Assembly (NCBI GenBank): GCA_913063835.1 | Contig: CAJXZV010000001.1 | Location: 1,366 to 65,365 of the forward strand | Length of the DNA stretch: 64,000 nt | DNA from: an uncultured Eubacteriales bacterium | GTDB taxonomy: Bacteria > Bacillota > Sulfobacillia > UBA995 > UBA9673 | Direction of reading: 5' to 3' | Shown: positions 5,381 through 59,457 of the stretch, piece by piece | How positions within the stretch are numbered: position 1 is the stretch's first letter | Layout: every line of letters begins with the position of its first letter | Translations under genes and position numbers: made by a program | The notes under the pieces: generated by a model | Databases searched by the model: none | The model's input: only the letters and a program-made list of their open reading frames with translations | Told to the model about the DNA's origin: nothing

Positions 5381-5386
5381 GTCCGT

Positions 5387-6076: not shown

Positions 6077-6091
6077 ACGCACATCTTGGTC

Positions 6092-6187
<96 letters not shown>

Positions 6188-6298
6188 TATTCGGTTGTCA
6201 ATCGATCGGGCAGGCCGACCGTGCCGGCGGCCCGGCTTCAGGCTATCTGGCTTATTAAGGATAGCACAGGGCGACTCTCAACTCAAGGTCGGAGCTCC

Positions 6299-6385
6299 TG
6301 GCGGAGGGGGCGGGATTCGAACCCGCAAGCCCGAAAGGGCGCCGGTTTTCAAGACCGGTCCGTTACCGTTACGGTACCCCTCCGC
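6299..6385 (-). tRNA. tRNA-Ser (anticodon UGA)
   Basis: Anticodon stem-loop CCGGT-CUUGAAA-ACCGG, CCA encoded. Confidence 0.75.
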
Positions 6386-22592: not shown

Positions 22593-22605
22593 CCGTCCTC
22601 ACCCC

Positions 22606-24594
<1,989 letters not shown>

Positions 24595-24745
24595 TTATAC
24601 CACACCACGGGCGGCCCGGCCACCCGCGATGGGGCGTCTAGCTGGGATTTAGCCGCCCGTCTCCGGCGGCAGGGTGCCGCCGGGCTGTCGTGGGTCAGGA
24701 CTCACTCCTTCTTCTTCGCCCAGGTGCAGGAGCATACCTGCGGCT

Positions 24746-25285
24746 TCATCCTTCGCCCGGCCGGGCGTGGCCCCTCTCGCTGAGCCAGCGCCTGGCCTTG
24801 AGGGTGGCGGTCAGCCAGCGCTCACCGGCCCTGGCGAGAGCCTCGTCACGTATGGCCCTGGAGAAGGACCTGACCTTCTCCAGGTCTTCGGGAGGCAGGT
24901 CCACAGAGGCCAGGTCGTGCCGGTCCGGCCAGGGCCCTGACCGGTCATCCCTCCCCGGACCGGGCCCGTCCGCTCCACGGCGCCCGGCCCCCTGCCGCGG
25001 CCTGCCGGTCACGAAGCGGATCTCTTTCACCAGGCCCTCGCCATAGCGCGACCTTATTCTCTCCAGCAGGACAGGGATTCGTGTGGAAAGCTCCGTCGCC
25101 CAGACGCTCGAGTCCACCCTGACGACGAGCACTCCCCGCTCGACCTTCTCGGCCCGCGCGTGTCGGGCGACCGCGGGCCCGGCGAGCTCCGGCCATCCGG
25201 CCACGACCATCGCCCCTCCCGCGGCTTTGGCCAGGCCGGCGCGGTCCAGCCAGCCCTTGAGCACGTCTCCGACAGGCCGGGTCAA
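24746..25285 (-). CDS. DUF721 protein (YaaB/RemB-like); TTG start overlaps the recF stop
   Basis: WPELAGPAVARHA...LVVRVDSSVWATEL matches the DUF721 pattern. Its recF-x-gyrB position is as in B. subtilis. Confidence 0.6.
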   Translation of the reverse strand: MTRPVGDVLKGWLDRAGLAKAAGGAMVVAGWPELAGPAVARHARAEKVERGVLVVRVDSSVWATELSTRIPVLLERIRSRYGEGLVKEIRFVTGRPRQGAGRRGADGPGPGRDDRSGPWPDRHDLASVDLPPEDLEKVRSFSRAIRDEALARAGERWLTATLKARRWLSERGHARPGEG

Positions 25286-26388
25286 GGGGACCCCTCCCTC
25301 CGGACGGCACCCTCGGCGACGGTGAACCATGCCACGACATTACCGCAAAGGTCTCCCTCGGTCAACGTGCGCTCGAGGCCGAGGCGGTCCGTGGTCGTCA
25401 CGAAGGCCTGTCCCCGCCCGAGAAGGGGGAGGAGGGAGGCCCTCCGTCTCGGGTCCAGCTCGGACATGACGTCATCCAGGAGGAGGATAGGACGCTCCCG
25501 GGCCTTCTCTTCCAGAAGGCCCAGGGAGGCGAGCTTCAGGGCCAGGACGGCGGACCGCTGCTGGCCCTGTGAGGCGAAGCGGCGGGCGTCCCGGCCGTCC
25601 ACGGTCAGGACGACCTCGTCGCGGTGGGGTCCGCTCAGGGTGACCTGTCGCAGAAGCTCCTCTTCGAGGCGGCCGGGGTCGAAACGGTCCGGAGCGTAGG
25701 TGATTTCGAGCAGGCCTACGGCGACCTCCCTGAAGGCCTCGGCAGCGGGCTCGCGGAGCGCCTGAAGGACGGCGGCCCGCGCCGACTGCACCCTCGCGGC
25801 CTCTTCGATGAGGGCCTCGTCCCACGGTTCCAGGAGGCGGCGCGAGGAGGCGGCGGAGAGGCGCCGGCCGGCGATGTCGGAAAGGAGGGCGTTGCGCTGG
25901 GTGAGGTTCCGGTGGTACCGCATCAGGGCCTCACGGTAGGAGGGTTGCGTCTGCCCGCAGAGAGTGTCGAGGAAGCGCCGCCTTTCGGCGGGCCCGCCCT
26001 TGACGAGGGTCAGGTCATCCGGACGGAAGGAGACGACAGGGACGCGCCCGAGCATCTCCCCCGGACGCGCGAGGTGCCGGCCGTCAACCGAGAGCTCTCT
26101 CCGGGACGGTCCGTCCTCGCGGGAGAGGAAGGAGACCTCGATGACGTGGCTGGAGAGCGTCCCCGTGACCCTGCCCCGTACCCGGTAGGCCTTCCCCCCG
26201 GTCCGCACCATGTCCGCGTCGGCGGCTCCACGGAAGGACCGCCCGGTGGCCAGGAGGCTCAGAGCTTCAAGCACGGAGGTCTTACCGGCCGCGTTGGGTC
26301 CGACGAGGACGTTCAGCCCGGGCTCAAAGGAGACGTCCACACGGGAGTAGAGCCGGAAGTCTCGGAGCTCCAGTCGCTCGAAGTGCAA
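25282..26388 (-). CDS. recF: DNA replication and repair protein RecF
   Basis: Walker A GPNAAGKTS and the SMC-like signature LLLDDVMSELD. Confidence 0.9.
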   Translation of the reverse strand: MHFERLELRDFRLYSRVDVSFEPGLNVLVGPNAAGKTSVLEALSLLATGRSFRGAADADMVRTGGKAYRVRGRVTGTLSSHVIEVSFLSREDGPSRRELSVDGRHLARPGEMLGRVPVVSFRPDDLTLVKGGPAERRRFLDTLCGQTQPSYREALMRYHRNLTQRNALLSDIAGRRLSAASSRRLLEPWDEALIEEAARVQSARAAVLQALREPAAEAFREVAVGLLEITYAPDRFDPGRLEEELLRQVTLSGPHRDEVVLTVDGRDARRFASQGQQRSAVLALKLASLGLLEEKARERPILLLDDVMSELDPRRRASLLPLLGRGQAFVTTTDRLGLERTLTEGDLCGNVVAWFTVAEGAVRREGSP

Positions 26389-26416
26389 CCTGTCTTCCCC
26401 GGTCCTCTCGCGGGGG

Positions 26417-27535
26417 CTAGGCCAGCCTCATGGGGAGGACGACACAGATGAACGAGTCGGCCTCTTCCGGGTCGGCGGGCCGCATGCAACTGGGCGACAA
26501 GGGCCCGGTGAACTCGTAGGTCATCTTCTCACTGTCGATGTTGCGCAGCCCCTCGATGAGATAGCGGGGATTGAAGGCTATCTCCAGGGTGTCGCCCTGG
26601 CTTTCGATGGCGACCTCCTCCCTCACCGTGCCCAGCTCCGGGGCACTGGCCGAGAGGACGAGGGTGGAGCCGTTGATCTCGAGCTTCACCGCTTGCCCGA
26701 CGTCCCGGGCGATGAGGGACGCCCGTTCACAGGCGTCGAGAAGGTCCCGGGTCCGACACGTCAGCTTGGTCACGAACTGCTTGGGGATGACCTGGTTGAA
26801 CGGAGGGAACTGGCCCTCTATCAGGCGGCAGACGACCCTTTCCCGCGCCCCCTCGAAGAAGACCCTGTTCCCGGAGACCGAGACCTTGACCTGTCCGTCC
26901 CCTTCTTCTCCGAGGACCCGGGAGACCTCGCTCACACCCCTTCCCGGGACGATGACCTCACCCTCGATATCCCCCTGGCGGTCGACCAGGTCTCCCTCTG
27001 AGACGGCGAGGCGGAAGCCGTCCGTGGCGACGAACTTCACCCTCTCCCCTTCGAACACGAAAAGAACACCGGTGAAGACCGGCCGGCTGTCGTCATGGGA
27101 GACGGCGAAAGCGGTCTGACGGACCATCCTCCTCAGCTCGGACTTTGCTATGGTGTAGGCCGGGGCTTGGGCCGGCTCAGGAAGAGGCGGGAACTCCTGA
27201 GCAGGGAAGCCGTTGATGGTGAACCGTGACCGTTCCCAGGTGATGTCCATCGTGTTGCCGGCCGCGTCGGCCTCGAACGATATCTCCCCGAAGGGAATCT
27301 TGCGGACGATGTCACCCAAGCGCGACGGCAGGACAAGAGCTCCCTCCTCGGCCACCGTAGCCGGGCAGAGGACTCGGATACCGATCTCCTGGTCGGTCGC
27401 ACTGAGGGCCAGACCGTCCGAGGTCGTCTCGATGAGGATTCCCTGCAACACGGGGAGCGGCGACCTGGGAGAGACCGCACGCTGAACGAGCTGTAGGCTT
27501 TGAGCCAGGTCTTCCTGGGCGACCTTGAACTTCAT
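26417..27535 (-). CDS. dnaN: DNA polymerase III beta sliding clamp
   Basis: MKFKVAQEDL N-terminus and a three-domain clamp length of 372 aa. Confidence 0.9.
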   Translation of the reverse strand: MKFKVAQEDLAQSLQLVQRAVSPRSPLPVLQGILIETTSDGLALSATDQEIGIRVLCPATVAEEGALVLPSRLGDIVRKIPFGEISFEADAAGNTMDITWERSRFTINGFPAQEFPPLPEPAQAPAYTIAKSELRRMVRQTAFAVSHDDSRPVFTGVLFVFEGERVKFVATDGFRLAVSEGDLVDRQGDIEGEVIVPGRGVSEVSRVLGEEGDGQVKVSVSGNRVFFEGARERVVCRLIEGQFPPFNQVIPKQFVTKLTCRTRDLLDACERASLIARDVGQAVKLEINGSTLVLSASAPELGTVREEVAIESQGDTLEIAFNPRYLIEGLRNIDSEKMTYEFTGPLSPSCMRPADPEEADSFICVVLPMRLA

Positions 27536-27589
27536 CAGTCCCGTCTCCTCCCACCGTCAGGGCCACAAGGCCGAAGGGAGGTCGGCTTG

Positions 27590-27845
27590 GGGCCCCTTAG
27601 ATATTCACAGGACCGCGGAACGGTTCCTCCCTCTTCTAAGAGAGTTTGCTTAAGACAGGAGTCGTAGTAGGGGCTGTGGACATGTGGAGGGCCAGGGAGA
27701 AGACCTGTGTCGAACGTGTTGGGGAGTCCTGTCGCTTGTGGACGGGCTGTGGAGAAGGGTCAACAGGTCTTCACACCAATCGGGGAGAGGAGGGGCGTTT
27801 CGACAAGAACCCACAGGAAAGAGGTCGCTGTCCACAGATGTTTCG
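27590..27845. promoter_or_regulatory. oriC segment II: a DnaA-box cluster plus an AT-richer stretch between dnaA and dnaN
   Basis: ATATTCACAGG, TGTGGACATGTGGAG, TTGTGGACGGGCTGTGGAG and TGTCCACAGATG. A relatively AT-rich stretch lies at about 27630-27660. Confidence 0.6.
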
Positions 27846-27886
27846 ACAGGGGAGAAGAGGAAGTCGGGGACGGACGGGCTCCGCGG

Positions 27887-29296
27887 TCACGCCGGGAGTT
27901 CGCGGAGGGCCGAGAGGAGGTTCTTCAGTTGCTCGTCGAGGTCGGGATTCTGCGTGCGCTCCTTGGTTATCTTCTCGCAGGCGTGAAGGACGGTCGTGTG
28001 GTCGCGGCCTCCGAACTCTTCCCCGATCTTGGGCAGGGAGTGGTTCGTCAGTTCGCGGCAGAGGTACATGGCTATCTGGCGCGGGAAGGCGACACGGCGG
28101 ACGCGGCTGTCGGACTTCAGGTCGTCGACCGAGAGGGAGTAGTGGCGGGCCACGAGGGCCTGGATGTCGGCGATGGTGGCGGCCCTGACACCCTTCTTCT
28201 CGGGGAGGATGTCGCGGAGCGCCTCGACGGCGAACTCGAGGGTGATAGGCTGGTTCTCCAGGGAGGAGGAGGCGACGATGCGGATGAGAGCTCCCTCGAG
28301 CTCGCGGATGTTCGTGTCGATCCGGCTGGCCACGTGCATGATGACGTCGTCGGGGATGCAGAGGCCTTCGGTCTGAGCCTTCTTGCGGAGGATAGCCACC
28401 CGCGTTTCCAGGTCCGGGGGCTGGATGTCCGCAAGGAGGCCCCATTCGAAGCGTGACCTGAGCCTCTCCTCGAGGGTCGGGATGTCCTTCGGGGGGCGGT
28501 CGCTGCTTATGACGATCTGGCGGTTGGCCCCGTGCAGGGCCTCGAAGGTGTGGAAGAACTCCTCCTGGGTGCGCTCCTTGCCGGCGAGGAACTGGATGTC
28601 ATCGATGAGCAGGACGTCTATGTTCCGGTAGCGTCTCTTGAACTCTATGGTCTTGTCGTCACGGATGGCGTTGATGAGTTCGTTGGTGAAGGTCTCCGAA
28701 CTCACGTACAGGACGACCAGGTCGGGGCTGTAGCGGGCCACGTAGTGACCGATGGCCTGCATGAGGTGGGTCTTGCCGAGTCCCACGCCCCCGTAGATGA
28801 AAAGGGGGTTGTAGGCCCGGGCGGGCGACTCGGCGACGGCCAGGGCCGCGGCGTGAGCCAGCCGGTTCGAATCTCCGACGACGAAGCTCTCGAAGGTGTA
28901 TTTAGGATTGAGGTAGAGGGGGGGTCGGCCGTCCTTCCCTGACGGGCTCGGGCCGTCCGCGCCGGACGGAGGCGCGGCGGGGTCTCGGGGAGGCGGGTCC
29001 GCCGCCAGCGGCTGGACGGTGTCGGGCCGGTAGGCGGCCGCCGCGACCTCCTGGTGGGCGTCGGGGGTGACGAAGCGGACGTCCAGAGGACGGCCTGCCG
29101 CCTCCCGGAGAGCGCTGAGGATGAGAGGCATGTACCGACTCTCTATCCACTGCTGGGCGAAGGTGTTCTGCACGGCCACGACGAGGGTGTTGTCGAAGAG
29201 CTCGACGGGACGGGTGCTCTTGAGCCACGTGTCGAAGCTCGGCTTGCGAAGCTCCGACTCCATGACCTGAAGAACGCGACCCCAGATGTCAGCCAT
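27887..29296 (-). CDS. dnaA: Chromosomal replication initiator DnaA; start chosen at the third Met (MADIWGRV)
   Basis: AAA+ Walker [12 protein letters not shown]-terminal DNA-binding motif [23 protein letters not shown]. Confidence 0.9.
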
Positions 29297-29359
29297 GCCG
29301 AGATCGTCGGATACGCCTTGCTGCATCACAGTACCTCCCGGGTGGCTGCGGCTTGTCAC

Positions 29360-29590
29360 TCCGGCCTTATCCACAGTCGTCCCCAATCGGTCCACAGGTT
29401 TCTCCACAGGCCTCTATAAGGACATCAGGGCCGGGGAGTCCCCGACCCGATCCTGCTCTCGACCTGGAAGTGTGCGTTTTGCCTGTGTCCGTGCAGCTTT
29501 GAGACCTTCGTCCGGCGCCGCGCCAGCCGGGGCACGACCACCCGTCCGGTCAGGGCCTTTTCCACAGTCCTGTCCACAACCTGTGGATAG
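29360..29590. promoter_or_regulatory. oriC segment I: a DnaA-box cluster upstream of dnaA
   Basis: A perfect TTATCCACA box at about 29367-29375. Further GGTCCACAGG, TCTCCACAGG, TTTTCCACAG, TGTCCACAA and CTGTGGATAG boxes. Confidence 0.65.
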
Positions 29591-29725
29591 TGCCCAGGAG
29601 AAGGCGCCGAACACGGTCTTCCAGAGACCTGGAGATGCACCCACATGATAGCAGAAAGGAGGACCCGGGACAACCGCATTCGACACGAGGCGGCCTTCCG
29701 ACGGCCGCCGGGAACCAGGTGCTTG

Positions 29726-29755
29726 TTGACACTCGGCGCTTGCGAGGGATAGAAT
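29726..29755 (+). promoter_or_regulatory. rpmH promoter (TTGACA, 18-nt spacer, TAGAAT)
   Basis: Read directly about 150 nt upstream of rpmH. Confidence 0.5.
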
Positions 29756-29904
29756 TAGTGAGCTATTCCCAGCGTGCGAGCCGCGGACCTCGCCGGCGAC
29801 GGAAGCCGGAGGTCCGCGCGGTTTGTGTGCTGCTCATCTGGGGAAACATTCCTGTCGCGCTGGCCGGGTGTCCGGCCCGGACGGTCCTGATGTGGGTGAT
29901 GGTG

Positions 29905-30039
29905 TTGAAGAGGACGTATCAGCCCAAGCGCCGGAAGAGGCGGAGGGTGCACGGCTTCCTCAAGCGTATGTCCTCGCGTGGGGGGCGGAAGGTGTTGAGT
30001 CGCCGCCGGGCCAAGAAGAGGAAAAGGCTCAGCGCGTGA
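29905..30039 (+). CDS. rpmH: 50S ribosomal protein L34
   Basis: [44 protein letters not shown] (44 aa). Confidence 0.9.
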
Positions 30040-30045
30040 GCACCC

Positions 30046-30411
30046 GTGGCCGTCGGCCGGAAGGTCCTCTCTCTCAGGAAGCCGGCTGAGTTCCAGCAGG
30101 TGATCTCCGAAGGGAAGAGGTTCGGGGGACGGTTCGTCTTACTCTTTGTGAGGCCCTCCGGAACGGACGTCCTGCGCGTGGGGGTGTCGGCGAGTAGCCG
30201 GGCCGGGACCAGTGTCGTCCGAAACCGTCTCAAGAGGCTCTTGAGAGAGGCTGTCCGCAGGAAGGCCCCGGACCTGAGGCCCGGCTACGACCTGGTCCTC
30301 ATCGCCAAGGCGGCCGCGGCGGGCCGCGGTCTGGCCGATGTCGCCCCCGACGTGGAAGCGGTCCTGCGGCGGGCCGGCCTTTGCGGAGGAGCCTGGGAGG
30401 AGGAGCCGTGA
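30046..30411 (+). CDS. rnpA: Ribonuclease P protein component
   Basis: FGGRFVLLF and RNRLKRLLRE (RNR motif). Confidence 0.85.
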   Translation: MAVGRKVLSLRKPAEFQQVISEGKRFGGRFVLLFVRPSGTDVLRVGVSASSRAGTSVVRNRLKRLLREAVRRKAPDLRPGYDLVLIAKAAAAGRGLADVAPDVEAVLRRAGLCGGAWEEEP

Positions 30412-30668
30412 GGTTGCTGAAAGCTCTGAGATGTGTTTTGCTCGGCTCCATCCGGGCCTACCAACTTGTCGTCTCACCGGCGCTCCGGGTCCTTCTCGGG
30501 CCGATGGTGGGCGGTGGCGGGCGCAGGTGCCGCTACTACCCGACGTGCTCCGAGTACGCGTACCAGGCGATAAGCAGGTACGGGCCTTTCAAGGGCGGGT
30601 ACCTGGCCGTGATGCGGGTCCTCAGGTGCAACCCGTGGAGCGCGGGCGGCTACGACCCGGTGAGGTGA
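30381..30668 (+). CDS. yidD: Membrane protein insertion efficiency factor YidD; it may start at an internal GTG
   Basis: YQLVVSPAL...CRYYPTCSEYA...YGPFKG. Confidence 0.7.
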   Translation: MRRSLGGGAVRLLKALRCVLLGSIRAYQLVVSPALRVLLGPMVGGGGRRCRYYPTCSEYAYQAISRYGPFKGGYLAVMRVLRCNPWSAGGYDPVR

Positions 30669-30686
30669 CAGAGGAGGGCAACCTCG

Positions 30687-31346
30687 TTGTCTAACCCCAT
30701 AGCTTGGCTGGCTGAGCTGTTCGAAGGCGCCGTCCAGAGTCTGTTCGAAGCCACCGGTAACTACGGGTGGGCGATAATAGTTTTCAGCGTCATCCTGAGA
30801 ATCCTCATCGCGCCCACTCAGCACATGCAGATCGCGAGCTCCAAACGCCTCCGAGAGGTCGAGCCGCTGAGAAAGGCCATCGAGAAGCGCTACAAGGGCA
30901 ACCCGAAGAGGATCCAGGAAGAGACGATGCGGCTGTACCGCGAGTACAACATAAGCCCGTTGGCCGGATGCCTGCCGATGCTGCTCCAAATCCCGATAAT
31001 CTGGGCCTTCTTCATCGCCCTGCGGACCTTCGAGTACCAGGGAGACGCCGGCTTCCTGTGGATCGAGCACCTCGGTCAGCCCGACCCGTGGATCCTTCCC
31101 ATCATCGCCGGAGTGACCACGTTCCTGCAGGCGAAAGTGACCATGCCTGCCTCCTCGGGAGACTCCCCGCAGCAGGCCACCCAGCAGACCTTCCTCTACG
31201 TGATGCCCCTGTTCATCGTGTGGGTGAGCCGTCAGTTCCCCGCAGGACTCGCCCTCTACTGGGTCGTCTCCAACATCGTGTCGATCCTCCAGCAGCTCAT
31301 CTTCCCGGCCGGGGGGCGGGACGAGCCGAGGGAGGCCGTGTCTTGA
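30687..31346 (+). CDS. yidC: Membrane protein insertase YidC/SpoIIIJ (short Gram-positive form; TTG start)
   Basis: NYGWAIIVFSVILRILIAP, LYREYNISPLAGCLPMLLQIPI and GLALYW motifs. Confidence 0.8.
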   Translation: MSNPIAWLAELFEGAVQSLFEATGNYGWAIIVFSVILRILIAPTQHMQIASSKRLREVEPLRKAIEKRYKGNPKRIQEETMRLYREYNISPLAGCLPMLLQIPIIWAFFIALRTFEYQGDAGFLWIEHLGQPDPWILPIIAGVTTFLQAKVTMPASSGDSPQQATQQTFLYVMPLFIVWVSRQFPAGLALYWVVSNIVSILQQLIFPAGGRDEPREAVS

Positions 31347-35506: not shown

Positions 35507-35796
35507 GGGTGTCAGGGGGGCCGGCGGGACGGGGACGCCCAGGGACCTGGGCGGGGTTTCGCCAGTGTTCCACGTGGAACATGCCCTTGCCGACACCGTC
35601 CGACAATAAGGAACCGCAGGTGTATGGAGCTGGAAAAAAGGCCCTCCCGACCCTCCCGCACAAGAGTCCGGGGAAGGAATCTGCCTCCAGGGACGAGAAT
35701 ACCTAGGCGGTTTCCCCTGTTCAGGTGGGGTCCTGTTTTCTCTCTTCGGGGAGCGGTGGCGGCTTGGCTCGCAGGGACCGGAACGTCTTCACCATC

Positions 35797-36741
35797 ATGA
35801 TCGTCCCTCACGCAGAGACGAAGGTCTTCACCTTCCGCCTCAGCACCCTTGCCTTTCAGGCCATCTGCTACGGGTTCGTCTGCCTCTTCCTCTTCATGAT
35901 GATCCTCGCCCGGTCGTACCAGACCATGGCCGCGAACATGTGGGAGCTCGAGGAACTCCGCCTGGTCAACCGCGAACAGCGCGAGCAGATAGAACAGCTC
36001 GTCAAGGAGGCCAGAGCCCTCCAAGAGCGGATGATGATCCTCGACGAGCTCGACAAGCAGGTCCGGGAGATGATGAAGCTCGAGTCCTATGACGCGGGCG
36101 ACCGCTCCGTGGCCCTGTCCTCCTTCCCGGGAGGGGGCTCCGACACCGGGCTGGCGGTGACCGCCTCTATGGGCGGAATCGGCGGGGGGCGCCTTCCCCA
36201 GGCCGGGGGTGTGGGGGTCGTCAGCCGGAAGGCCATCCAGGACGCCCTCCGCGCCCGCAGCATCCTTGAGAGCATCGACAGGGAGATGACCGTCAGGAGC
36301 CAGAGCCTGCACGAATTGCGGCGCCTCATCGCGGAGAACATGTCCTACGTGGCGGCCCGGCCTTCGATCTGGCCCGCCTACGGCTTTATCACCTCCTACT
36401 ACGGCTACAGGTTCACCGTCTACGGCTACGAGCACCATGACGGCATAGACATCTCCGGGCGCGTCGGCACCCCCATCGTGGCCACGGCCGACGGCACCGT
36501 GGTCTTCGCCGGGTGGAACGGGCTCTACGGCCGGACGGTGGTCATCGACCACGGGTACGGTTGGAGCACGCTGTACGGGCACTGTGCGAAGCTGGCCGTG
36601 GAGTTGGGTGATAGGGTCAAGCGCGGTGAGGTCATCGGGTTCATCGGGTCGACCGGGAAGAGCACCGGCCCTCATGTGCACTATGAGGTCCGCGTCAACG
36701 GACGCACGGTCAACCCCCGGTATTACCTCGGCGGGAACTGA
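35797..36741 (+). CDS. Membrane-anchored M23 (LytM-type) metallopeptidase with a coiled-coil region
   Basis: N-terminal TM helix and coiled coil. The HxxxD motif (HDGIDI) and HxH motif (HVHYE) are intact. Confidence 0.7.
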   Translation: MIVPHAETKVFTFRLSTLAFQAICYGFVCLFLFMMILARSYQTMAANMWELEELRLVNREQREQIEQLVKEARALQERMMILDELDKQVREMMKLESYDAGDRSVALSSFPGGGSDTGLAVTASMGGIGGGRLPQAGGVGVVSRKAIQDALRARSILESIDREMTVRSQSLHELRRLIAENMSYVAARPSIWPAYGFITSYYGYRFTVYGYEHHDGIDISGRVGTPIVATADGTVVFAGWNGLYGRTVVIDHGYGWSTLYGHCAKLAVELGDRVKRGEVIGFIGSTGKSTGPHVHYEVRVNGRTVNPRYYLGGN

Positions 36742-39367: not shown

Positions 39368-40059
39368 CGCACCGCCGGCCTGGGGCCGGCCTGCTCGGGG
39401 AGGCGTCTGGCGGGCATCTGGGCCAGGACGGCCGCGAGGCCTTCAGAGATCACGGTGGACATCTTCATCACCAGGTGAAGACGGGTGTTCTGGAGCACGA
39501 AGTACTCCATGAAGCCCCCGACGTTGACCACGCCGGTGACGTAGAGGTCGCCGACCGGCGGGAGGCTCTTGTTCACGCCGGCCCCGGGGCGGAGGGGGCC
39601 GAGCCCCACGCAGATGGTCCCCACGTTCTCGAGAGTCCCGAGACACGCGTCGACGGCCACCACCACGTGCCCGGCGTATCTCCTGTGGATGGTCTCGAGG
39701 CGCTCGGACAGGTTCCCGGCGTGGACCGGGTCCTCCAGCGTGCCGAAGACCACCTCCCGGTCAGGGACCATGGAGCGGAGCCGGTGGCCGGTCAGGGGGC
39801 CGAGGGCGTCCCCCGTGGACCTGTCCGTTCCCACGCAGACGACGACTATCCCGCGCAGGACCGCCGTCACGCGGGTCAGGGCCTCCCGCACCGCCGTGCA
39901 GAGTCTCGCGTCCGCGGCCGGCTCGTCGACATGGATCCGGACGGACCAGTTCGACCACCGCGGAACCGAGAGGCAGCCCGCCGCTCTGGCCGCGACCTCT
40001 GACGCGGGCCGACCTCTCCCGACACCGGCACGTGGGACGTTGCGCGTGAGTCGCTCCAC
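39364..40059 (-). CDS. yyaC: Sporulation protein YyaC (GPR/HybD-like protease fold); GTG start inferred
   Basis: VVVCVGTDRSTGDALGPLTG motif. The remainder of the 445-aa track ORF is Arg/Pro-rich junk. Confidence 0.6.
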   Translation of the reverse strand: MERLTRNVPRAGVGRGRPASEVAARAAGCLSVPRWSNWSVRIHVDEPAADARLCTAVREALTRVTAVLRGIVVVCVGTDRSTGDALGPLTGHRLRSMVPDREVVFGTLEDPVHAGNLSERLETIHRRYAGHVVVAVDACLGTLENVGTICVGLGPLRPGAGVNKSLPPVGDLYVTGVVNVGGFMEYFVLQNTRLHLVMKMSTVISEGLAAVLAQMPARRLPEQAGPRPAVR

Positions 40060-40253
40060 CTCTCCGGCCTCTCTCGCCGCAAGTGTTACCAAGTATATGC
40101 CCTGCCAGAAGCTGTATGCGTAGGGCGGGGGCCGGCCGGGCCGCCGAGGGGGGAGGACTGGGCCTCGAGGCCGCCGAAGTGCAGGCCGGGCGGGTGATGG
40201 CGCAGTAGGGGCCTGCGGCCGACGGCCGACGGGGCACGCCCCTCGGAACCGGA

Positions 40254-41426
40254 GTGGTGAAGACGAAGACGGCGAGGCCGATACGTATCGGGGCGCACCG
40301 GCGACAGCGCCCGTCCCCGCGTTCCGGCCGCGGGGCCGTCTGGACGGGTCTCTTCCTCCTGCTTCTTGTCGTCGCCGCGGCCGTCTCCCGGGACCTGTGG
40401 GCCGACCTCGCTGGCGGCCTGCTGGGCCTGGGCCGCCAGGCGCTGCCCCAAGGAAGGGTCCTGTGGACGGCGGAGGTCGCCGCGGGGGCTCTGTTCTGCC
40501 TGGACTCGTCCGGCACGGCCTATCTCGCCTACGAACCGCCGGGAGGCGCCCCTCCGGCTCCCCGGACGCGGGTCGTCGCCGTCTCGGCGTCCGGTTCCGA
40601 AGAGAGCCTCGCCGACGTGTCCGGGAGTCCTCTCGCCCTGGGCCTCGAGGAAGTCGAGGAAGTCCCTGCCGGGGAGACGGACGGAGAGTCTCCTCCCACA
40701 CGCTCCCTGCGGGTCGTCCTGGTCGGGACCGGCGGCGGAGACCTCGTCTCGGAGGAACTCCTGTGGCTCGAGCCCCTGGGCTCCGGAGACGGGGCCGAGG
40801 TCGCCCACCGCACCGAGCGGGCCGTCGTCACCTCCGCGGCCGCCCATGCCGACGGTCCGAGCGTGGTGGCCGGGCTCTACGTCCCTGACCCTGCCGGGGA
40901 GGGCGTCCCCGAAGGCCGCGTCATCGCCCTCGGGCCGGCGGGGCAGGAGCTGTGGGCGGCGAAGATGGACCGGCGACCTGTCCACCGTGTCGCCGCCCGG
41001 CCCGGCACGGGCTTCATCGCCGCGGCCACCCCCGAACGCGTGACCCTGTTCGACAGCCAGGGCCACCTCCTGTGGTCCAAGAGGTTCCGCTCAGGGGTCA
41101 CCGACCTTGCTCTCCAGAGCCACGGGGGGCCCGCCGTCGTCAGCGCCGGGCGGCTCCTGAGCCTCGACCGCCGGGGGAACCTCGTCTGGCGGAAGGAAGC
41201 GGAAACGGGCATCACGGCCCTCTCCTGTGCGGCGGACCGCATCGCCGTCGCGGCAGGGGACGGGGTGGTGGTCTACGACGAGAACGGCCTGGCCCGCTGG
41301 TGGGTGCCGTGCGACGGCTCCCCCGTCGAGGTCTCGCTGAGTCCGTGCGGCCGCCTGGTGGCCGTGGTCGTCGACTCCGGGACCCTCCTCGTGGCGGAGG
41401 CGCCCGGAAGGGAGGGCGGCAGGTGA
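40254..41426 (+). CDS. Membrane-anchored PQQ-like beta-propeller repeat protein
   Basis: N-terminal TM helix. Repeated G.(L/V)(L/V)W blades: QGHLLWSKRF, RGNLVWRKEA, NGLARWWVP and GQELWAAKM. Confidence 0.55.
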   Translation: MVKTKTARPIRIGAHRRQRPSPRSGRGAVWTGLFLLLLVVAAAVSRDLWADLAGGLLGLGRQALPQGRVLWTAEVAAGALFCLDSSGTAYLAYEPPGGAPPAPRTRVVAVSASGSEESLADVSGSPLALGLEEVEEVPAGETDGESPPTRSLRVVLVGTGGGDLVSEELLWLEPLGSGDGAEVAHRTERAVVTSAAAHADGPSVVAGLYVPDPAGEGVPEGRVIALGPAGQELWAAKMDRRPVHRVAARPGTGFIAAATPERVTLFDSQGHLLWSKRFRSGVTDLALQSHGGPAVVSAGRLLSLDRRGNLVWRKEAETGITALSCAADRIAVAAGDGVVVYDENGLARWWVPCDGSPVEVSLSPCGRLVAVVVDSGTLLVAEAPGREGGR

Positions 41427-41809
41427 ACAGACGGGCCCTGGTGTTGCTGGTCCGGACGGCTGCCGCCGGCCTGGCCCTCCTCGGCCTCCGGGCGCTCCTC
41501 GCAGGGGGCCCGGGCCAGCCGTCGGTCTGGCTCACGGCGCCGGCGGCCTTCGCCTCGGCCAAACTCGCGGGCGACCTGACCCTGCTCGTCCTGTTCCGTC
41601 ACGCTACGGTCGTCTTCTATGAAGACATCTTCTGGGAACTGGTCGGGTTCATCGTCCTCGGCCTTGTTGCCGCAGGTCTCATCGTCGTCGTCCAGAACCT
41701 CATAGGGGGCCCGGTTTCACCCTACTTCCCGGCCTTCGGGGTCCACCTGGCCTACACGCTGGTGGAGACCGGCCGGGCGGGAAGTGACACGGGGGATGAA
41801 CGACTGTGA
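41423..41809 (+). CDS. Small integral membrane protein (GTG start overlapping the upstream stop)
   Basis: Three hydrophobic helices. Translationally coupled to both neighbouring genes. Confidence 0.4.
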   Translation: MNRRALVLLVRTAAAGLALLGLRALLAGGPGQPSVWLTAPAAFASAKLAGDLTLLVLFRHATVVFYEDIFWELVGFIVLGLVAAGLIVVVQNLIGGPVSPYFPAFGVHLAYTLVETGRAGSDTGDERL

Positions 41810-42513
41810 ACATCCTGGACTGGATCGTGGTGGCCTGCCTGACCGTCGGCGCGGTGCGCGGTCTCAGGCGCGGACTCGTGCGCAGCGTCCTGGGGCTGGC
41901 CGGACTCATTCTCGGGCTCGTCGTGGCCTCCCGCTTCTACCGCCCGCTGACCGAGTACCTCGAACTGCACTACGGGGCGGTCACCCGCATGGCCTCCGGG
42001 ATTGCCGCTCATCTACCCCTCCCGTCGACGGTGGCCGCCACGCCGGCGTCCGAAGGGGGGGCCTTGGTCGAGGCCGTCCAGGGAATGGGCCTGCCCGAGT
42101 TCGTCACGGGATACCTGGTGGCTGGTGCCGAGCAGCTTGCCAACCTGCCGGACGCCGCCACCGTGGGCGAGGCTCTGGCGACTCTCCTCGCCTCCTCTGT
42201 CGTCGGGGTGCTCTCCTTCGTCGCCCTGTTCGTGGCGACGCAGGTCCTCACGGCGCTCCTGGCATGGGTCATCTGCGGGATGATATCCGTGACCCCGCTC
42301 GTGGTCGTCGACAGGCTCGCCGGGATGGTCCTGGGTGCGGTCTACGTCGGGGTCGTCGTGACCCTGGTCATCGGAGGTCTCGCCCTCCTGGCCGGGATGC
42401 CGGCTTTCTCCTTCATGACCCAGGTGCTGGCGGCGTCCAAGACGGCCCCGTTCTTCCTGGACCTGTTCGAGCTTCTCCTCCCCCGCATCCCGGACTGGCT
42501 GTCCTTGGGGTAG
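41806..42513 (+). CDS. cvpA: CvpA-family membrane protein (colicin V production protein)
   Basis: MNILDWIVVACLTVGAVRGLRRGLV N-terminus and four TM helices. Confidence 0.7.
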   Translation: MNILDWIVVACLTVGAVRGLRRGLVRSVLGLAGLILGLVVASRFYRPLTEYLELHYGAVTRMASGIAAHLPLPSTVAATPASEGGALVEAVQGMGLPEFVTGYLVAGAEQLANLPDAATVGEALATLLASSVVGVLSFVALFVATQVLTALLAWVICGMISVTPLVVVDRLAGMVLGAVYVGVVVTLVIGGLALLAGMPAFSFMTQVLAASKTAPFFLDLFELLLPRIPDWLSLG

Positions 42514-42623
42514 GCGGGGCGGAGCTGACCGGCGGCGGGGCCGACACGGAGGAAGAGGTCCGCCCCCCGGGGGTGGGGTCGTGACCCGGGGGGAACAATG
42601 CTGGCGGAGGAGGTTCGGCGCAC

Positions 42624-43589
42624 TTGGCTCTCCGTGAGACACTCGGAAGGCTCTGGCAGGCGGCGGCCGGTATCGACTGGGGGGAGACCGGCCTCGCCGC
42701 CCTCTGGGCCCTGGTGAAGATCGCGGGTGTCGTGTTCCTGGCCCGGCTCCTCACCGGTTTCGCGAGCCGCCTCATCGACCGGCTCGCCGAGCGCGAGGGG
42801 CGGCACCACAGGTTTCTCGGTGACGAGCGCCGGTTCCGCACCATCGGCGGCATCATCAAGGGCGTAGTGCGGTACGCCGTCTACTTCTTCGCCGGGGTGA
42901 CCATCCTCAGCATGCTCGGCATCGACACCTCCTCCATCCTGGTCGGTGCGGGCGTCGTGGGGCTGGCCGTGGGGTTCGGCGCTCAGAACCTGGTGCGGGA
43001 TGTCATCAGCGGGTTCTTCATCCTTTTCGAGGACCAGTTCGCCGTCGGGGACTACATCGCCGCCGCCGGCGTGGACGGCATCGTGGAGGAGATGAGCCTC
43101 AGGACGACGCGGCTCCGTGCCTTCGCCGGGGACCTCCACATCATCCCCAACGGCATCATCGACAAGGTGACCAACTACAGCCGGGGCGCGATGCGGGTCC
43201 TCTTCGAGGTCGAGGTCGCCTACGAGGAGGAGACGAGCAAGGTCATAGAGCACGTGCAGGAGATCCTGGACCGTTTCGCGGCCGAGTCCGAGGTCGTCGT
43301 CGAGGGGCCCAGGGTCCTCGGCGTCTCCCAGCTCGGCGCCTCGGGCGTGTCCATAATGGTCTGGGCGAAGGTCAAGCCGATGGAGCAGTGGGCCGTTGAG
43401 CGCGAGTTGAAGCTCCGCATCAAGGAGTCCTTCGACCGGGCCGGTATCGAGATCCCGTACCCGCGGCGGGTCTACATCTACGGCGGGAACCTCAAGGACG
43501 AGAACCCGCCCCCTGCACCCTTCGGGGCGTCCGCGCCCGGCGACGCCGGCCGTGACGCCGGCGGCGGCGACAGGGGGGAGGACCGGTGA
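42624..43589 (+). CDS. mscS: Small-conductance mechanosensitive channel (MscS family)
   Basis: GFGAQNLVRDVISGFFILFEDQFAVGDYI pore and beta-domain signature. Confidence 0.8.
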   Translation: MALRETLGRLWQAAAGIDWGETGLAALWALVKIAGVVFLARLLTGFASRLIDRLAEREGRHHRFLGDERRFRTIGGIIKGVVRYAVYFFAGVTILSMLGIDTSSILVGAGVVGLAVGFGAQNLVRDVISGFFILFEDQFAVGDYIAAAGVDGIVEEMSLRTTRLRAFAGDLHIIPNGIIDKVTNYSRGAMRVLFEVEVAYEEETSKVIEHVQEILDRFAAESEVVVEGPRVLGVSQLGASGVSIMVWAKVKPMEQWAVERELKLRIKESFDRAGIEIPYPRRVYIYGGNLKDENPPPAPFGASAPGDAGRDAGGGDRGEDR

Positions 43590-43828
43590 CCAGGCCGCTG
43601 TTCCCGGGTTCGGTCAAGTACCACGTGGGGGACATCGTGGAGCTGCGCAAGACGCATCCCTGCGGCGGGCGGGAGTGGGAGATAACCCGTACCGGGATAG
43701 ACTTCGGCCTGAGATGCACGACCTGCGGGCGCCGGGTGATGCTTCCGAGGCACAAGTTCGAAAAAAGGGTCAAACGCATCGTGCGCTACGCGCTGGACCT
43801 CGAGGGCCAGACGACTCCGGGCACCTGA
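43586..43828 (+). CDS. DUF951 protein (YyzM-like)
   Basis: 80 aa with a CxxC...CxxC pattern. It sits upstream of rpsF, as yyzM does in B. subtilis. Confidence 0.55.
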   Translation: MTRPLFPGSVKYHVGDIVELRKTHPCGGREWEITRTGIDFGLRCTTCGRRVMLPRHKFEKRVKRIVRYALDLEGQTTPGT

Positions 43829-44001
43829 GGCATCCTCTCGGGCCGGGGCTGGGCGCGCCTTTGCCTTCCCCCGGCCGCTGGGTTATAATTGAGCCCGTCC
43901 TTACACCACCCGCCCCGCACCGCGTTGCGGGGCCTTCCCGGTCGGCGGCCTGGAGGCCAGGAGACGGGCCGGCCGGGATGTCCGAGGGAGGAGGTGACCT
44001 G

Positions 44002-44460
44002 ATGGCCGCGTACGAGAGCGTCTTCATCCTGCGGCCAGACCTCGACCGGGAAGGCGTCGACAAGACCTGTGAACGCGTCGTCGACGTCGTGACCAAGAGC
44101 GGCGGTTCCGTCCTCTCCGTCGAGAAGGTCGGCCTGCGCCGCCTCGCCTACGAGATCGAGCATTTCTCCGACGGGTTCTACGTCATCCTCAACTACGAGG
44201 GAGAGCCGCCCGCAACCCGAGAGCTCGAGCGCTTCTTCAAGATAAGCGACGAGGTCATCCGCTACCTCATCGTCAAGCGGGAGGTGCCCTTCGAGAAGCC
44301 GCAGACGAGGAAGACCAAGGCCTCGGCCGAAGAGACCCCCGGGGACGGCGGGACCGGCAGAGGTGAGGCCGGAGACACCCCGGAGGGCGGTCGGACCGCG
44401 TCCCCCGCAGGAAGCGGCGACCTCCCATCGGGGGCCGAGGCCGCTCCTCCCGGCGAGTGA
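44002..44460 (+). CDS. rpsF: 30S ribosomal protein S6, with an acidic Gly/Pro-rich C-terminal tail
   Basis: MAAYESVFILRPDL, with a GGGAGGAGGTGA RBS upstream. Confidence 0.85.
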   Translation: MAAYESVFILRPDLDREGVDKTCERVVDVVTKSGGSVLSVEKVGLRRLAYEIEHFSDGFYVILNYEGEPPATRELERFFKISDEVIRYLIVKREVPFEKPQTRKTKASAEETPGDGGTGRGEAGDTPEGGRTASPAGSGDLPSGAEAAPPGE

Positions 44461-49526: not shown

Positions 49527-49907
49527 ATGCCTGGTTTCATCGGTGAGGAAATCGAGCCCGTCTTCAAGGAAGAGCCCGAGCTGGAGAAGAAGACCGGCGT
49601 TCCGGACGGGTTCAAGTGGCGCGGCCGGGAGTACGCCGTCACCCGCGTCATCAAGGAGTGGCACGAGTACGACCATCCCCGGCCCGGGGGCGGCTGGGAC
49701 GCCGGGCGCCCGCCCTTCGGAGCCCGGGCTCCCATGAGGCGGGGCTCGTGGGGGGTCGGGAAGGATTTCTACCGCGTGATGACCGACGACGGCCGGCTGG
49801 TCGACATCTACTACGACCGGCGGCCGAAGGGGCGCAAGAAGGGCCGCTGGGTCATCCTCCGCGAGCTGGGCGGGACCGGGGCCGGCCGGGGTTCCTCTAA
49901 GACGTGA
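49527..49907 (+). CDS. Hypothetical 126-aa basic protein
   Basis: Good RBS and its own promoter. No family recognised (FKWRGREYAVTRVIKEW...GRWVILRE). Confidence 0.5.
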   Translation: MPGFIGEEIEPVFKEEPELEKKTGVPDGFKWRGREYAVTRVIKEWHEYDHPRPGGGWDAGRPPFGARAPMRRGSWGVGKDFYRVMTDDGRLVDIYYDRRPKGRKKGRWVILRELGGTGAGRGSSKT

Positions 49908-50538
49908 ACCTGTGGTCGCCGATGGTGACCTTATGAGGCCGGCGCCAGAGGAAGGCGTTGGAGGTCTTGGCCGGGTTGAAGAAGTAGAGGGCCCCTCCGG
50001 TCGGGTCCTCGCCGGCCGCGGCCGCCCGGGCGGCCTTCAGGGCCGTCTCGGTCGGCTCTGTGTTTATGTGGCCGTTGGCCACCGGTTCGAACTGCCCGGG
50101 CTGGTATATGACGGCCCGGACGGAATCCGGGAAGCTCTTGCTCCTCATGCGGTTCATCACCACCGCGCCCACAGCCACCTGCCCCGCGTAGGGCTGTCCG
50201 CGCGCCTCGGCCGTGATGAGCCGGGCCAGGAGACGGATGTCGCTCTCGCTCAGCCGAGACTCCGGCGGGTCGGGGTTCCCCTCGGCGGTCTCCGCGGCTC
50301 CGGACGGACCGAGGCCCGCGGGGGCCGGTTCAGGGGAGACGGCGACAGGCGGCTCGGCCGCCTGCGGGCCGGCGGCAAGCCCGACGACGCCCCCCGCGGC
50401 GGAGGCGAGAACCAGGGCCGCGAGGAGGACAAAGGCCGCCGCCCTGCGAATTTCGAAGCCTTCGGTCGAAGTCGGGGTCAGGGTGTGGACGATGGCTCGC
50501 ACCGGTTCCACCACCTTCCTCTCAGGGGCTTGTCGCAC
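49897..50538 (-). CDS. sleB: SleB/CwlJ-family cell-wall (spore cortex) hydrolase
   Basis: LLARLITAEARGQPYAGQVAVGAVVMNR...ALYFFNP hydrolase-2 domain motifs. Also an N-terminal TM or signal segment. Confidence 0.7.
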   Translation of the reverse strand: MRQAPERKVVEPVRAIVHTLTPTSTEGFEIRRAAAFVLLAALVLASAAGGVVGLAAGPQAAEPPVAVSPEPAPAGLGPSGAAETAEGNPDPPESRLSESDIRLLARLITAEARGQPYAGQVAVGAVVMNRMRSKSFPDSVRAVIYQPGQFEPVANGHINTEPTETALKAARAAAAGEDPTGGALYFFNPAKTSNAFLWRRPHKVTIGDHRFTS

Positions 50539-56657: not shown

Positions 56658-56732
56658 GCGGGAGTAGTTCAGTGGTAGAGCATCGGCTTCCCAAGCCGAG
56701 TGTCGCGGGTTCGAATCCCGTCTCCCGCTCCA
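56658..56732 (+). tRNA. tRNA-Gly (anticodon CCC)
   Basis: Anticodon stem-loop TCGGC-UUCCCAA-GCCGA, GGTTCGAATCC T-arm, CCA encoded. Confidence 0.85.
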
Positions 56733-56761
56733 TTTTTGTTCTTCAAGTTCATTACAAGAAA

Positions 56762-56836
56762 GCCGGCGTAGCTCAGTGGTAGAGCCCTCGATTCGTAATC
56801 GAGCGGTCACGGGTTCGAATCCCGTCGCCGGCTCCA
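56762..56836 (+). tRNA. tRNA-Thr (anticodon CGU)
   Basis: Anticodon stem-loop CTCGA-UUCGUAA-TCGAG, CCA encoded. Confidence 0.85.
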
Positions 56837-56849: not shown

Positions 56850-57908
56850 TCAGTTCAGGATGAAGAGGGGGTTCACCGAGACTCCGTTGACCCGGACCTC
56901 GAAGTGGAGGTGCGGTCCGGTGGAGTACCCGGTGCTCCCGACCTTCGCTATGACCTGACCGGTCTCGACCCACTGCCCGTACCGGACCAGAAGCCTTGAC
57001 GCGTGGGCGTAGAGGGTCGTCACCCCGTCACCGTGGTCGAGGATGACCGTGTAGCCGTAGCCGCCCTTCCATCCGGCGAAGACGACCCGGCCCGCGCGGG
57101 CGGCGCGGATGTAGCTTCCGTAGGGGGCCCCGATGTCGATCCCGTGGTGGAACCTGCCCCACCGAGGACCGTAGTAGGAAGTCACCGGACCGAGCACCGG
57201 CCAGCGGTACTCCCCGTAGATGGCCACCGCCCGCCCGCCGACGATCACCGTGCGGACGATGGTCGGGGTGGCCCCCGGGATGATGACCTCGGTGCCGGGC
57301 TCGAGGGCCTCCGGGTCGTCCAGGGCGTTGGCCTGGACGATGACGTCCGGTTCGACCCCGTACTTCTCCGCGAGGGCCGAGACGGTGTCTCCCGGCTGGA
57401 CGGTGTGGAGCACTCCGTCGACCGACAGGAGCCTTATCTCCTGACCCACCTGGAGGCGGCTCGGCACCAGGTCGGGGTTCGCCCCCATGATGGTGGTGAC
57501 GGTGATGCCGTGCTCCTGAGCGATGTCCCAGAGGGTGTCCCCGCTCCTCACCGTGTAGGTGAAGACGCGCGGGCGCGGCTCGGCGTCGGCCCCGGCGGAG
57601 AGTCGGACGGGGGATGTCCGGGAGCCGGTGGACGTCCGGGGTTCCTCCGCGGTGAGCGGGCCCGGGGCCCCGGACCGTTGCACCGGGTCTCCGAGACGCC
57701 CGTGCCTGCCGGGGAGGGCGGTCGGAGAGGTGAGTTCCACCCCGGGTCTCCCCGGGAGGAGTCCTTCCAACGGCTCGCCGCCGCCCACGGGGGTGAAGAA
57801 GGCCTGGGTCTCGGCGTCGGTCGTGATGAGGAGCGGCACGCCGGTCCCGGTGAGGGCTACAGAGGCCAGGACGAGGACGAGGACGACGATCGGCACGAGG
57901 CGGCCCAA
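56850..57908 (-). CDS. LysM-domain M23 peptidase (two LysM repeats plus a LytM catalytic domain)
   Basis: YTVRSGDTLWDIAQEHG and HTVQPGDTVSALAEKYG LysM repeats. HHGIDI and HLHFE M23 motifs. Confidence 0.75.
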   Translation of the reverse strand: MGRLVPIVVLVLVLASVALTGTGVPLLITTDAETQAFFTPVGGGEPLEGLLPGRPGVELTSPTALPGRHGRLGDPVQRSGAPGPLTAEEPRTSTGSRTSPVRLSAGADAEPRPRVFTYTVRSGDTLWDIAQEHGITVTTIMGANPDLVPSRLQVGQEIRLLSVDGVLHTVQPGDTVSALAEKYGVEPDVIVQANALDDPEALEPGTEVIIPGATPTIVRTVIVGGRAVAIYGEYRWPVLGPVTSYYGPRWGRFHHGIDIGAPYGSYIRAARAGRVVFAGWKGGYGYTVILDHGDGVTTLYAHASRLLVRYGQWVETGQVIAKVGSTGYSTGPHLHFEVRVNGVSVNPLFILN

Positions 57909-58077: not shown

Positions 58078-59457
58078 ATGCCGCGCACGTCCACAGGTCC
58101 GGCGCCCGCCACGCGGGCGCTGGTCATCGCTTTCGTCGTCCTCTTCGGGTCCGTCATGGCCGCCTTGGGTTGGGAGGCGTACGACAGGCAGTTCGTCTAC
58201 GCCGTGGAGGTGGACGGGACCTTCCTCGGATACGCCGCCTCGAGGGAGGAGTGGAACCAGGCGGTCCAGGAGGCCCTGACCCGGGCCGAGGAGGAGACCG
58301 GTCTCGCCGTCGTCCTCCAGTCCGAGGTGTCCCTCACGAGGACCCGTCCGCGGCCCGACCACGAGGTGCTCACGGGGACCGCTCTCCTCGAGGCCTGCCG
58401 AGGAGCGCTCACTTTCGTCTCCGAGGCCTGGGCCGTGACTGTCGACGGCGCCGAGGTGGTCTACCTCCGGAGCGAAGCCGAGGCCCGGCGGGTCATCGAA
58501 GAGCTGGTCCGAGACCACCGGGATTCGCTCCTGGCCAAAGGGAACACCGTCGTCGAGAGGATCACCGTCCTCGAGGAGGTCTCCTGCCGCCGCACGACGG
58601 CCGCTGTCGACAAGGTCGTGGATGTCGGACGCGCCAAGGACATCCTCCGCCGCGGTACCGACCGCCTGGAAGTCCACGTCGTGGCGCGCGGGGAGAGTCT
58701 CTGGACTATAGCCAGTGACAACTCCCTGACCGTGGCCGACCTGCAGAAGGCCAATCCCCACATCACCGACCCCGACCGCATCAGGGTGGGGGACAAGATA
58801 AACCTCATCGTTCCCGACCCTTACGTCAACCTTGAGAGCGTTGAGCTCCACACCTTCATCAGGTACGTGCCCTTCTCCGTCCAGCGCCGCACCGACCCCG
58901 AGCTCTGGCCGTGGGAGAGCCATGTCCAGCGCGCCGGTGTCTACGGCCGCGAAGAGGTCACGGTGAGGATACGGCGCCTGAACGGCGAGGAGGTCTCCCG
59001 CTCCGTCGTCTCCGAAAAGCGGCTCTCCGACCCCGTGCCACAGGTCTTCGTCCTCGGGACCAAGCAGTGGCCGAAGAGGAACGGCGGCTGGGTCTTCCCG
59101 GTCGTCGGCCCCATAACCTCGTGGTACGGCTGGCGCTACAGCGGGTTCCATCACGGGCTGGACATCGGGGCCCCCTACGGCACTCCGGTCCTGGCCACCG
59201 CGAGCGGCACCGTCACCTTCGTCGGCTGGCGCGGAGGCTACGGCCGCACGGTCATCATCGACCACGGGGGAGGGGTAGAGTCGCTCTACGCGCACCTCTC
59301 GACCCTGGGGGTGTCGGTCGGACAAAGGGTGAGCCAGGGCCAGGTGATAGGACGGGTGGGGAGCACCGGTCGCAGTACAGGGGCCCACCTTCACCTGGAG
59401 ATACGCGTGAACGGCAAATCCGTGAACCCCGTCGACTACTACCCCCGCGGCGGCTGA
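58078..59457 (+). CDS. Membrane-anchored LysM-domain M23 peptidase
   Basis: N-terminal TM helix. LysM repeat HVVARGESLWTIASDN. HHGLDI and HLHLE M23 motifs. Confidence 0.75.
   Translation: MPRTSTGPAPATRALVIAFVVLFGSVMAALGWEAYDRQFVYAVEVDGTFLGYAASREEWNQAVQEALTRAEEETGLAVVLQSEVSLTRTRPRPDHEVLTGTALLEACRGALTFVSEAWAVTVDGAEVVYLRSEAEARRVIEELVRDHRDSLLAKGNTVVERITVLEEVSCRRTTAAVDKVVDVGRAKDILRRGTDRLEVHVVARGESLWTIASDNSLTVADLQKANPHITDPDRIRVGDKINLIVPDPYVNLESVELHTFIRYVPFSVQRRTDPELWPWESHVQRAGVYGREEVTVRIRRLNGEEVSRSVVSEKRLSDPVPQVFVLGTKQWPKRNGGWVFPVVGPITSWYGWRYSGFHHGLDIGAPYGTPVLATASGTVTFVGWRGGYGRTVIIDHGGGVESLYAHLSTLGVSVGQRVSQGQVIGRVGSTGRSTGAHLHLEIRVNGKSVNPVDYYPRGG

Follow-up and report, generated by a model that had tools for sequence, protein, structure and literature searches.

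A conserved gene trio of uncultured Bacillota that may tie a long CvpA protein to a small four-helix membrane protein and an anchored beta-propeller

CvpA proteins are widespread and matter for gut colonisation by pathogens, and the family is functionally unsolved, without a known activity, defined partners or a structure. Within a 64,000-nucleotide (nt) stretch of contig CAJXZV010000001.1, from an uncultured Eubacteriales bacterium (GenBank assembly GCA_913063835.1; the whole stretch is referred to below as the window), three consecutive genes encode a membrane-anchored beta-propeller protein (gene 1), a small four-helix membrane protein (gene 2) and a long CvpA (gene 3). The chances seem to us about even that in the cytoplasmic membrane this trio forms a single, conserved functional unit, with the small protein and the long CvpA as its core; these two are singled out because their adjacency survives almost every rearrangement among related loci. 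The known part of the locus is the CvpA core, while the new parts are a lineage-specific CvpA insertion and two previously undescribed companions.

The locus thereby offers CvpA two candidate partners, one of them from an undescribed family, and because nature has here linked a CvpA variant genetically to two specific proteins, the question of what CvpA binds becomes a testable one. Should the fullest form of this reading, given below, be correct, these would be the first partners defined for a family that occurs in tens of bacterial phyla and whose mechanism has stayed open since the 1980s. Only rare uncultured Bacillota carry the module, which restricts experimental access, and its link to Escherichia coli is one of membrane-core homology only. 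Full-text literature searches returned no account of CvpA together with a propeller, a small partner or sporulation, and no paper describing the trio was found, in agreement with the initial annotation of this DNA, which had not recognised it as a described operon. The three open reading frames (ORFs) are as follows:

40254-41426, plus strand: gene 1, propeller protein, ORF of 390 amino acids (aa)
41423-41809, plus strand: gene 2, small protein with four transmembrane (TM) helices, ORF of 128 aa
41806-42513, plus strand: gene 3, long cvpA, ORF of 235 aa

All three are real coding genes. The plus-strand ORFs and the GTGA sequences that had been reported at their junctions (41423-41426 and 41806-41809) were confirmed in place, with an overlap of 4 nt between each stop codon and the GTG start that follows. 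Because spurious long ORFs abound in the window (68.5% G+C), GC content was examined by codon position. The values at positions 1, 2 and 3 are.78/.57/.88 for the propeller gene,.74/.47/.83 for the small gene and.72/.46/.89 for cvpA; GC3 thus far exceeds GC2 in all three, as it does in the window's ribosomal, replication and other housekeeping genes, and the codon position of highest GC switches frame exactly at both junctions. Shine-Dalgarno (SD)-like sequences precede both internal GTG starts (GGGAGGG, 6 nt 5' of the small gene at 41423; GGGGGA, 9 nt 5' of cvpA at 41806), and these starts are also backed by N-termini that are kept in relatives. Comparison with a 95%-identical relative, from small counts, puts the ratio of nonsynonymous to synonymous substitution rates (dN/dS) of the small gene at 0.26, that of cvpA at 0.20 and that of the C-terminal part of the propeller at 0.70; this pattern indicates purifying selection on the small gene.

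The initial annotation had itself raised the doubt that the GTG starts might be wrong and the middle ORF non-coding, a high-GC artefact such as the many long spurious ORFs of this DNA and the overlapping ORFs that run here in other frames. We regard this as exceedingly improbable: it is excluded by the frame-specific GC pattern of the small gene (GC3 0.83, GC2 0.47), the SD sequence at the correct distance before its start, protein identity of 46-61% across loci within a family of 46 clusters, the dN/dS of 0.26, and a confident AlphaFold2 (AF2) model of its product (predicted local distance difference test, pLDDT, 94.6).

The evidence that carries the proposed unit comes from related genomes. 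Contexts of close and distant members were fetched and the three families mapped in them with hidden Markov models, with hhalign used for the divergent propellers of loci L018 and L011, and a metagenome scan with a narrower family alignment added four loci. All the related contexts recovered belong to uncultured Bacillota, the metagenome-assembled genomes (MAGs) of the relatives being labelled ‘Bacillota bacterium’ or ‘Symbiobacterium sp.’. A long cvpA (225-244 aa) comes directly after the small gene in all distinct contexts except L019, and a membrane-anchored propeller gene lies directly 5' of the small gene in all except L012/L013 and L019. Adjacency of the small gene and cvpA survives changed flanks, as where a TPR gene has entered upstream (L014), a further membrane gene is present (L018) or a Se_S_carrier gene has been inserted after cvpA (L020).

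At least eight loci have a 4-nt overlap at the junction of propeller and small gene, and in the others where the two adjoin they are no more than 28 nt apart; spacing between the small gene and cvpA ranges from -14 to +44 nt. Protein identity across loci is 46-61% for the small protein, 47-66% for CvpA and 40-47% for the propeller, so that in sequence the small protein and CvpA are about equally conserved, both above the propeller. In none of the recovered contexts did the small gene turn up apart from both cvpA and the propeller. The initial annotation had made its interpretation depend on whether the first two genes keep company with cvpA in other genomes, and in these relatives the trio stays together. 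The extra gene of L018 (4709-5749) encodes a 346-aa polytopic membrane protein with no Pfam match, situated between yyaC and the propeller on the strand of the trio.

Synteny without shared function is a serious alternative: the three would be independent membrane proteins, kept as neighbours by slow rearrangement close to the origin, with overlaps that reflect genome compaction. We consider this an unlikely account, although several observations speak for it and weigh against a common function. The entire neighbourhood from parB to dnaB around the trio is syntenic in related MAGs (parB, soj, spo0J, M23, bactofilin, DAGK, PRTase, (UPF0180), yyaC on the minus strand, the trio, mscS, DUF951, (ychF), rpsF, ssb, rpsR, rplI, lonC, dnaB), and gene order is weaker evidence of shared function because this whole origin-proximal block is conserved. 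Overlaps of 4-11 nt join approximately eight other same-strand gene pairs in the window; the tight GTGA coupling emphasised earlier therefore stands as an observation but not as a special sign, since such overlaps are frequent here and those of the trio, taken alone, are not beyond expectation, their informative part being their conservation in relatives. The trio is also incomplete in two settings: L012/L013 carry yyaC and small-cvpA-mscS with no propeller, and in L019 the order is propeller-selA-small-selB, in unrelated surroundings that hold no nearby cvpA. No fusion (Rosetta-stone) form occurs among the 46 representatives of the gene 2 family. For CvpA-type membrane domains no solved structure was found, and the physiological role of the proposed unit has to be argued from analogy alone, because CvpA's own biochemistry is unsolved.

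Against mere synteny, in turn, speaks the company that the small gene keeps. It occurs essentially only beside a long cvpA or a propeller, even where flanks are rearranged or genes inserted, and its family is extremely rare and never alone; a dedicated conserved motif, described below, precedes the first gene. More than inertia appears to be at work because the small gene is always with a partner and in L019 has moved with the propeller to a new place, the two lying together there in a wholly different context. A 243-aa gene 5' of the L019 propeller was tested as a divergent CvpA and is not one. Selenium genes adjoin the small gene in two unrelated distant loci (L019:4359-9281, propeller-selA-small-selB; L020:7001-8299, small-cvpA-Se_S_carrier (PF11823)-mscS), which may be coincidence or a functional hint.

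By its sequence, gene 2 is the founder of a rare, previously undescribed family. It has no credible Pfam or NCBIfam match, no PDB or fold relative, and no match to a curated family or solved structure; an exhaustive profile search of 1.84 billion representative proteins assembled a family of 46 clusters, whose representatives (76-144 aa) are all unnamed or annotated as hypothetical. The protein had been described as having three helices, and the AF2 model, built with 45 family members in the alignment (pLDDT 94.6, predicted template modelling score 0.86), has four TM helices instead (3-27, 35-57, 66-94 and 101-125), with both termini predicted to be cytoplasmic.

The family is marked by a sharp signature of membrane-embedded charges. 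TM2 carries F43-x3-K47-x2-G50-D51, and the cytoplasmic start of TM3 carries F65-x-E67-D68-x3-E/D72; K47 and D51 share one face of TM2 near the cytoplasmic leaflet, and E67, D68 and E/D72 likewise lie near it. Conservation within the protein peaks in its outer loop (G95-G-x-V-x-P100-x2-P103-A104, that is GGxVxPxxPA), and the invariant positions of the family are F43, G95 and P100, with P103 and A104 conserved at 93-96%. TM3 also bears a conserved Gly/Ala-rich stripe (F76, L79, G80, A83, A84, I87, A90 in most members, and I94), a pattern typical of helix-helix packing. In L007 (9224-9472), between an intact propeller gene and an intact cvpA, the small-protein ORF is only 82 aa and ends after TM3, for which a frameshift, an error of assembly or decay of the copy might account.

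Gene 3 had been assigned to the CvpA family, an assignment borne out by its match to Colicin_V/CvpA (PF02674; 78.9 bits over two stretches, cutoff 29.3, E 5e-22) and by the presence of the family's Asp and Gly residues. CvpA is a four-TM inner-membrane protein with a conserved Asp and three Gly and with HHpred similarity to MscS and MscL; homologues occur in 9,830 genomes of 55 phyla, and the E. coli protein, which shows genetic interactions with ion-transport genes, has links to the sigma-E response to envelope stress and, by the authors' proposal, binds partners in the periplasm (Warr et al., bioRxiv 10.1101/2020.09.25.314492). Alignment of gene 3 with CvpA (DedE) of E. coli K-12 shows that TM1, the basic loop (RGLRRGLVRS in gene 3) and TM2 are kept, with D5, G23, A41 and G173 invariant.

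The E. coli protein has 162 aa, whereas the 235 aa of gene 3 include a net acidic insertion of approximately 75 residues (∼50-125) between TM2 and TM3, absent from E. coli CvpA and followed by the C-terminal TM helices. The insertion is predicted to be extracytoplasmic, because the topology reported for the family by Warr et al. would place it outside the membrane. Gene 3 scores only 33.9 bits against the E. coli-type equivalog NF008100 (compact, four-TM, ∼160 aa; cutoff 264). The contexts also differ: cvpA lies in dedD-cvpA-purF in E. coli and in propeller-small-cvpA-mscS in the window, and no dedicated partner proteins have been described for the E. coli protein. Phenotypes of the family are production of colicin V and resistance to deoxycholate, and E. 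coli without cvpA is deoxycholate-sensitive.

A second relative of interest is MarP (Rv3671c) of Mycobacterium tuberculosis, in which four N-terminal TM helices are joined to a protease, the activator of the peptidoglycan hydrolase RipA (PMC12183614). The likeness lies in the combination of a CvpA-like four-TM module with an envelope-acting domain outside the cytoplasm; in MarP this outer domain is a fused serine protease, whereas the window has a separate, non-catalytic-looking propeller and a separate four-TM protein. Membership of gene 3 in the MarP family was rejected, as it has no protease domain and its match to the MarP model (NF033740) is weak, covering residues 4-82 of the TM region at 30.3 bits, far under the cutoff of 250.

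Gene 1 passes the Pfam threshold for PQQ_2 (PF13360; 39.2 bits against 27.6), and its confident AF2 model predicts a type-II membrane-anchored, seven-bladed beta-propeller that faces outward: a basic cytoplasmic tail with a conserved GAHRRQRPSPR, a TM helix at approximately 27-56 with a W-x-G-L-F-L motif, and an extracytoplasmic propeller at approximately 68-382. The basic tail and TM anchor occur in all the propeller orthologues compared, and the propeller is rare, a search of 5.77 billion clustered proteins yielding only 15 homologues. Its earlier description as a membrane-anchored PQQ-like beta-propeller fits at the level of repeats (PQQ_2) but not at that of the fold, where generic seven-bladed propellers are the best matches.

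Extracytoplasmic location and PQQ_2 repeat similarity are what gene 1 shares with the eight-bladed BamB/YfgL, with YxaL (among its Foldseek matches) and other PQQ_2-type propellers, and like these it presumably serves as a protein-interaction platform. Identity with BamB itself was rejected (TIGR03300, 25.7 bits against an equivalog cutoff of 285.2, with generic propellers as best fold matches); where the N-termini align, they show the basic tail and TM helix and no visible lipobox Cys of the BamB type. A distant kinship to the uncharacterised propeller family DUF5711 (PF18975) is plausible from sequence comparison. The window protein has no match to it at E<=1, whereas the positional orthologue in L020, the most distant locus, passes its threshold (47.4 bits against 26.3); several other propeller orthologues give weak matches, and hhalign aligns the window propeller family with the L020 protein at 90.6% probability. 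Full-text searches for literature on DUF5711 returned nothing relevant.

Predicted topology suggests how the parts of the proposed unit might be arranged. All three are integral membrane proteins, and their conserved features cluster in two places: the predicted outer face gathers the propeller, the CvpA insertion and the small-protein loop, and the cytoplasmic leaflet side gathers the charges of the small protein (K47, D51, E67, D68, E/D72), the basic loop of CvpA and the basic tail of the propeller. The small protein may pack against CvpA in the membrane as a dedicated subunit, with the propeller docking on the outer face of this pair as an accessory adaptor or sensor. The contact surface would most likely be extracytoplasmic, because the outer loop, the insertion and the propeller are all predicted to lie outside. 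That the three proteins form a physical complex is what we infer, and the ‘stoichiometric envelope complex’ of the initial annotation claims too much.

Such an assembly could be this clade's own adaptation of the role of CvpA. The analogy with MarP and with E. coli CvpA, whose phenotypes concern envelope stress and ion homeostasis, suggests that it might sense or correct perturbation of the envelope or membrane, or possibly act as a small gated or regulated channel beside MscS. Envelope or membrane homeostasis is the most likely physiology on this analogy, and our confidence in it falls considerably short of even. The fullest form of the proposal, an envelope-homeostasis complex in which the four-helix protein is an obligate CvpA subunit and the propeller an extracytoplasmic adaptor, possibly with MscS, is possible but doubtful.

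The trio appears to head a longer transcription unit, in which the following features come into play:

40154..40179, plus strand: AGGACTG-N15-GAAG promoter-like motif, 74 nt 5' of the propeller start
42624..43589, plus strand: mscS (Pfam MS_channel domains, NCBIfam MscS)
43586..43828, plus strand: DUF951 gene, sharing 4 nt with mscS (the identical gene in L001 carries the DUF951 annotation, as do its counterparts in relatives)

The first of these is the sole match to AGGACTG-N14/15-GAA[CG] (GAAS) in the 64-kb window, where 0.18 are expected, and each of 11 related loci likewise has exactly one, lying invariably 40-150 nt 5' of the propeller. Outside two motif blocks, the intergenic DNA between yyaC and the propeller has diverged. 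The AGGACTG-GAAS element is a candidate promoter of the trio operon. No sigma-70-like site was found 5' of the trio or inside the unit in a sigma-70 scan, and no riboswitch, leader RNA (Rfam) or terminator was found within 39950-42700. The 110-nt spacer between cvpA and mscS contains no terminator-like site and no significant structure; mscS follows cvpA in every long-enough locus except L019, with one gene between them in L020. A terminator-like hairpin and a good sigma-70-like promoter-like site for rpsF lie at approximately 43861-43889, after DUF951. Because there is no terminator inside, mscS and DUF951 overlap, and the hairpin and rpsF site come only after DUF951, the unit probably runs as propeller-small-cvpA-mscS-DUF951, with DUF951 last. 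Between DUF951 and rpsF, a ychF gene is present in most related loci (L002, L004, L005, L012 and L014), and absent in the window (43828-44040) and in L007.

The second motif block lies on the minus strand at 40092-40119, 5' of the divergent yyaC (G[CA]ATA-N15-17-CATATACT); it is kept in the most distant loci and occurs also in L005, L007, L010, L012, L014, L018, L020, L021 and L022. Judged by Bacillus subtilis consensus sequences, it looks like a forespore (sigma-F/G-type) promoter. The sigma-H consensus of B. subtilis is AGGA-N17/18-GAAT, with AGGA at -35 and GAAT at -10. The AGGACTG motif appears to resemble this type and matches it in the spacing of AGGA and GAA, with C or G rather than T as its last base.

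These motifs bear on a further reading, in which the trio would be a sporulation-specific envelope device, for example of the forespore or mother-cell membrane, with expression tied to development, as its place beside yyaC and the M23 and bactofilin genes would suggest. All contexts except L019 adjoin the spore protease gene yyaC with its forespore-type motif, the motif of the trio resembles the sigma-H type used at sporulation entry, and genes for a SleB-like hydrolase and for several M23/LysM peptidases lie nearby. We think this rather improbable, however, for yyaC is divergent, has its own motif and forms a separate transcription unit; among known sporulation families there is no match to any of the three proteins; sigma-H, a tentative assignment by likeness to a consensus, also drives many non-sporulation genes; and the downstream mscS, DUF951 and rpsF operon are housekeeping genes. 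The trio had been placed among sporulation and cell-shape genes, and its neighbours are indeed M23 peptidase, bactofilin, DAGK/YegS, PRTase, UPF0180 and yyaC (minus strand) upstream, with mscS and DUF951 downstream; the link to sporulation amounts to adjacency to the divergently transcribed yyaC.

On a larger scale, the window spans the chromosomal origin region (20142-31346): gyrA, gyrB, recF, dnaN and dnaA occupy the minus strand up to 29.4 kb and face rnpA and yidC, which lie on the plus strand from 30.0 kb and are followed there by noc/parB, soj and spo0J. The replication origin, oriC, is presumably at approximately 29.4-30.0 kb, which places the trio approximately 10 kb from it. Cell-wall hydrolase genes are unusually dense within 25 kb in the window, as follows:

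35725-36741, plus strand: bactofilin-paired M23
49897-50538, minus strand: SleB-like Hydrolase_2
56850-57908, minus strand: LysM-M23, one of two (one of the pair with G5)
58078-59457, plus strand: LysM-M23, the other of the two

Elsewhere in the window, a bacterial large SRP RNA is encoded on the minus strand (4823-5086) inside a cluster of eight tRNA genes (4425-6383), and two further tRNA genes lie at 56658-56833.

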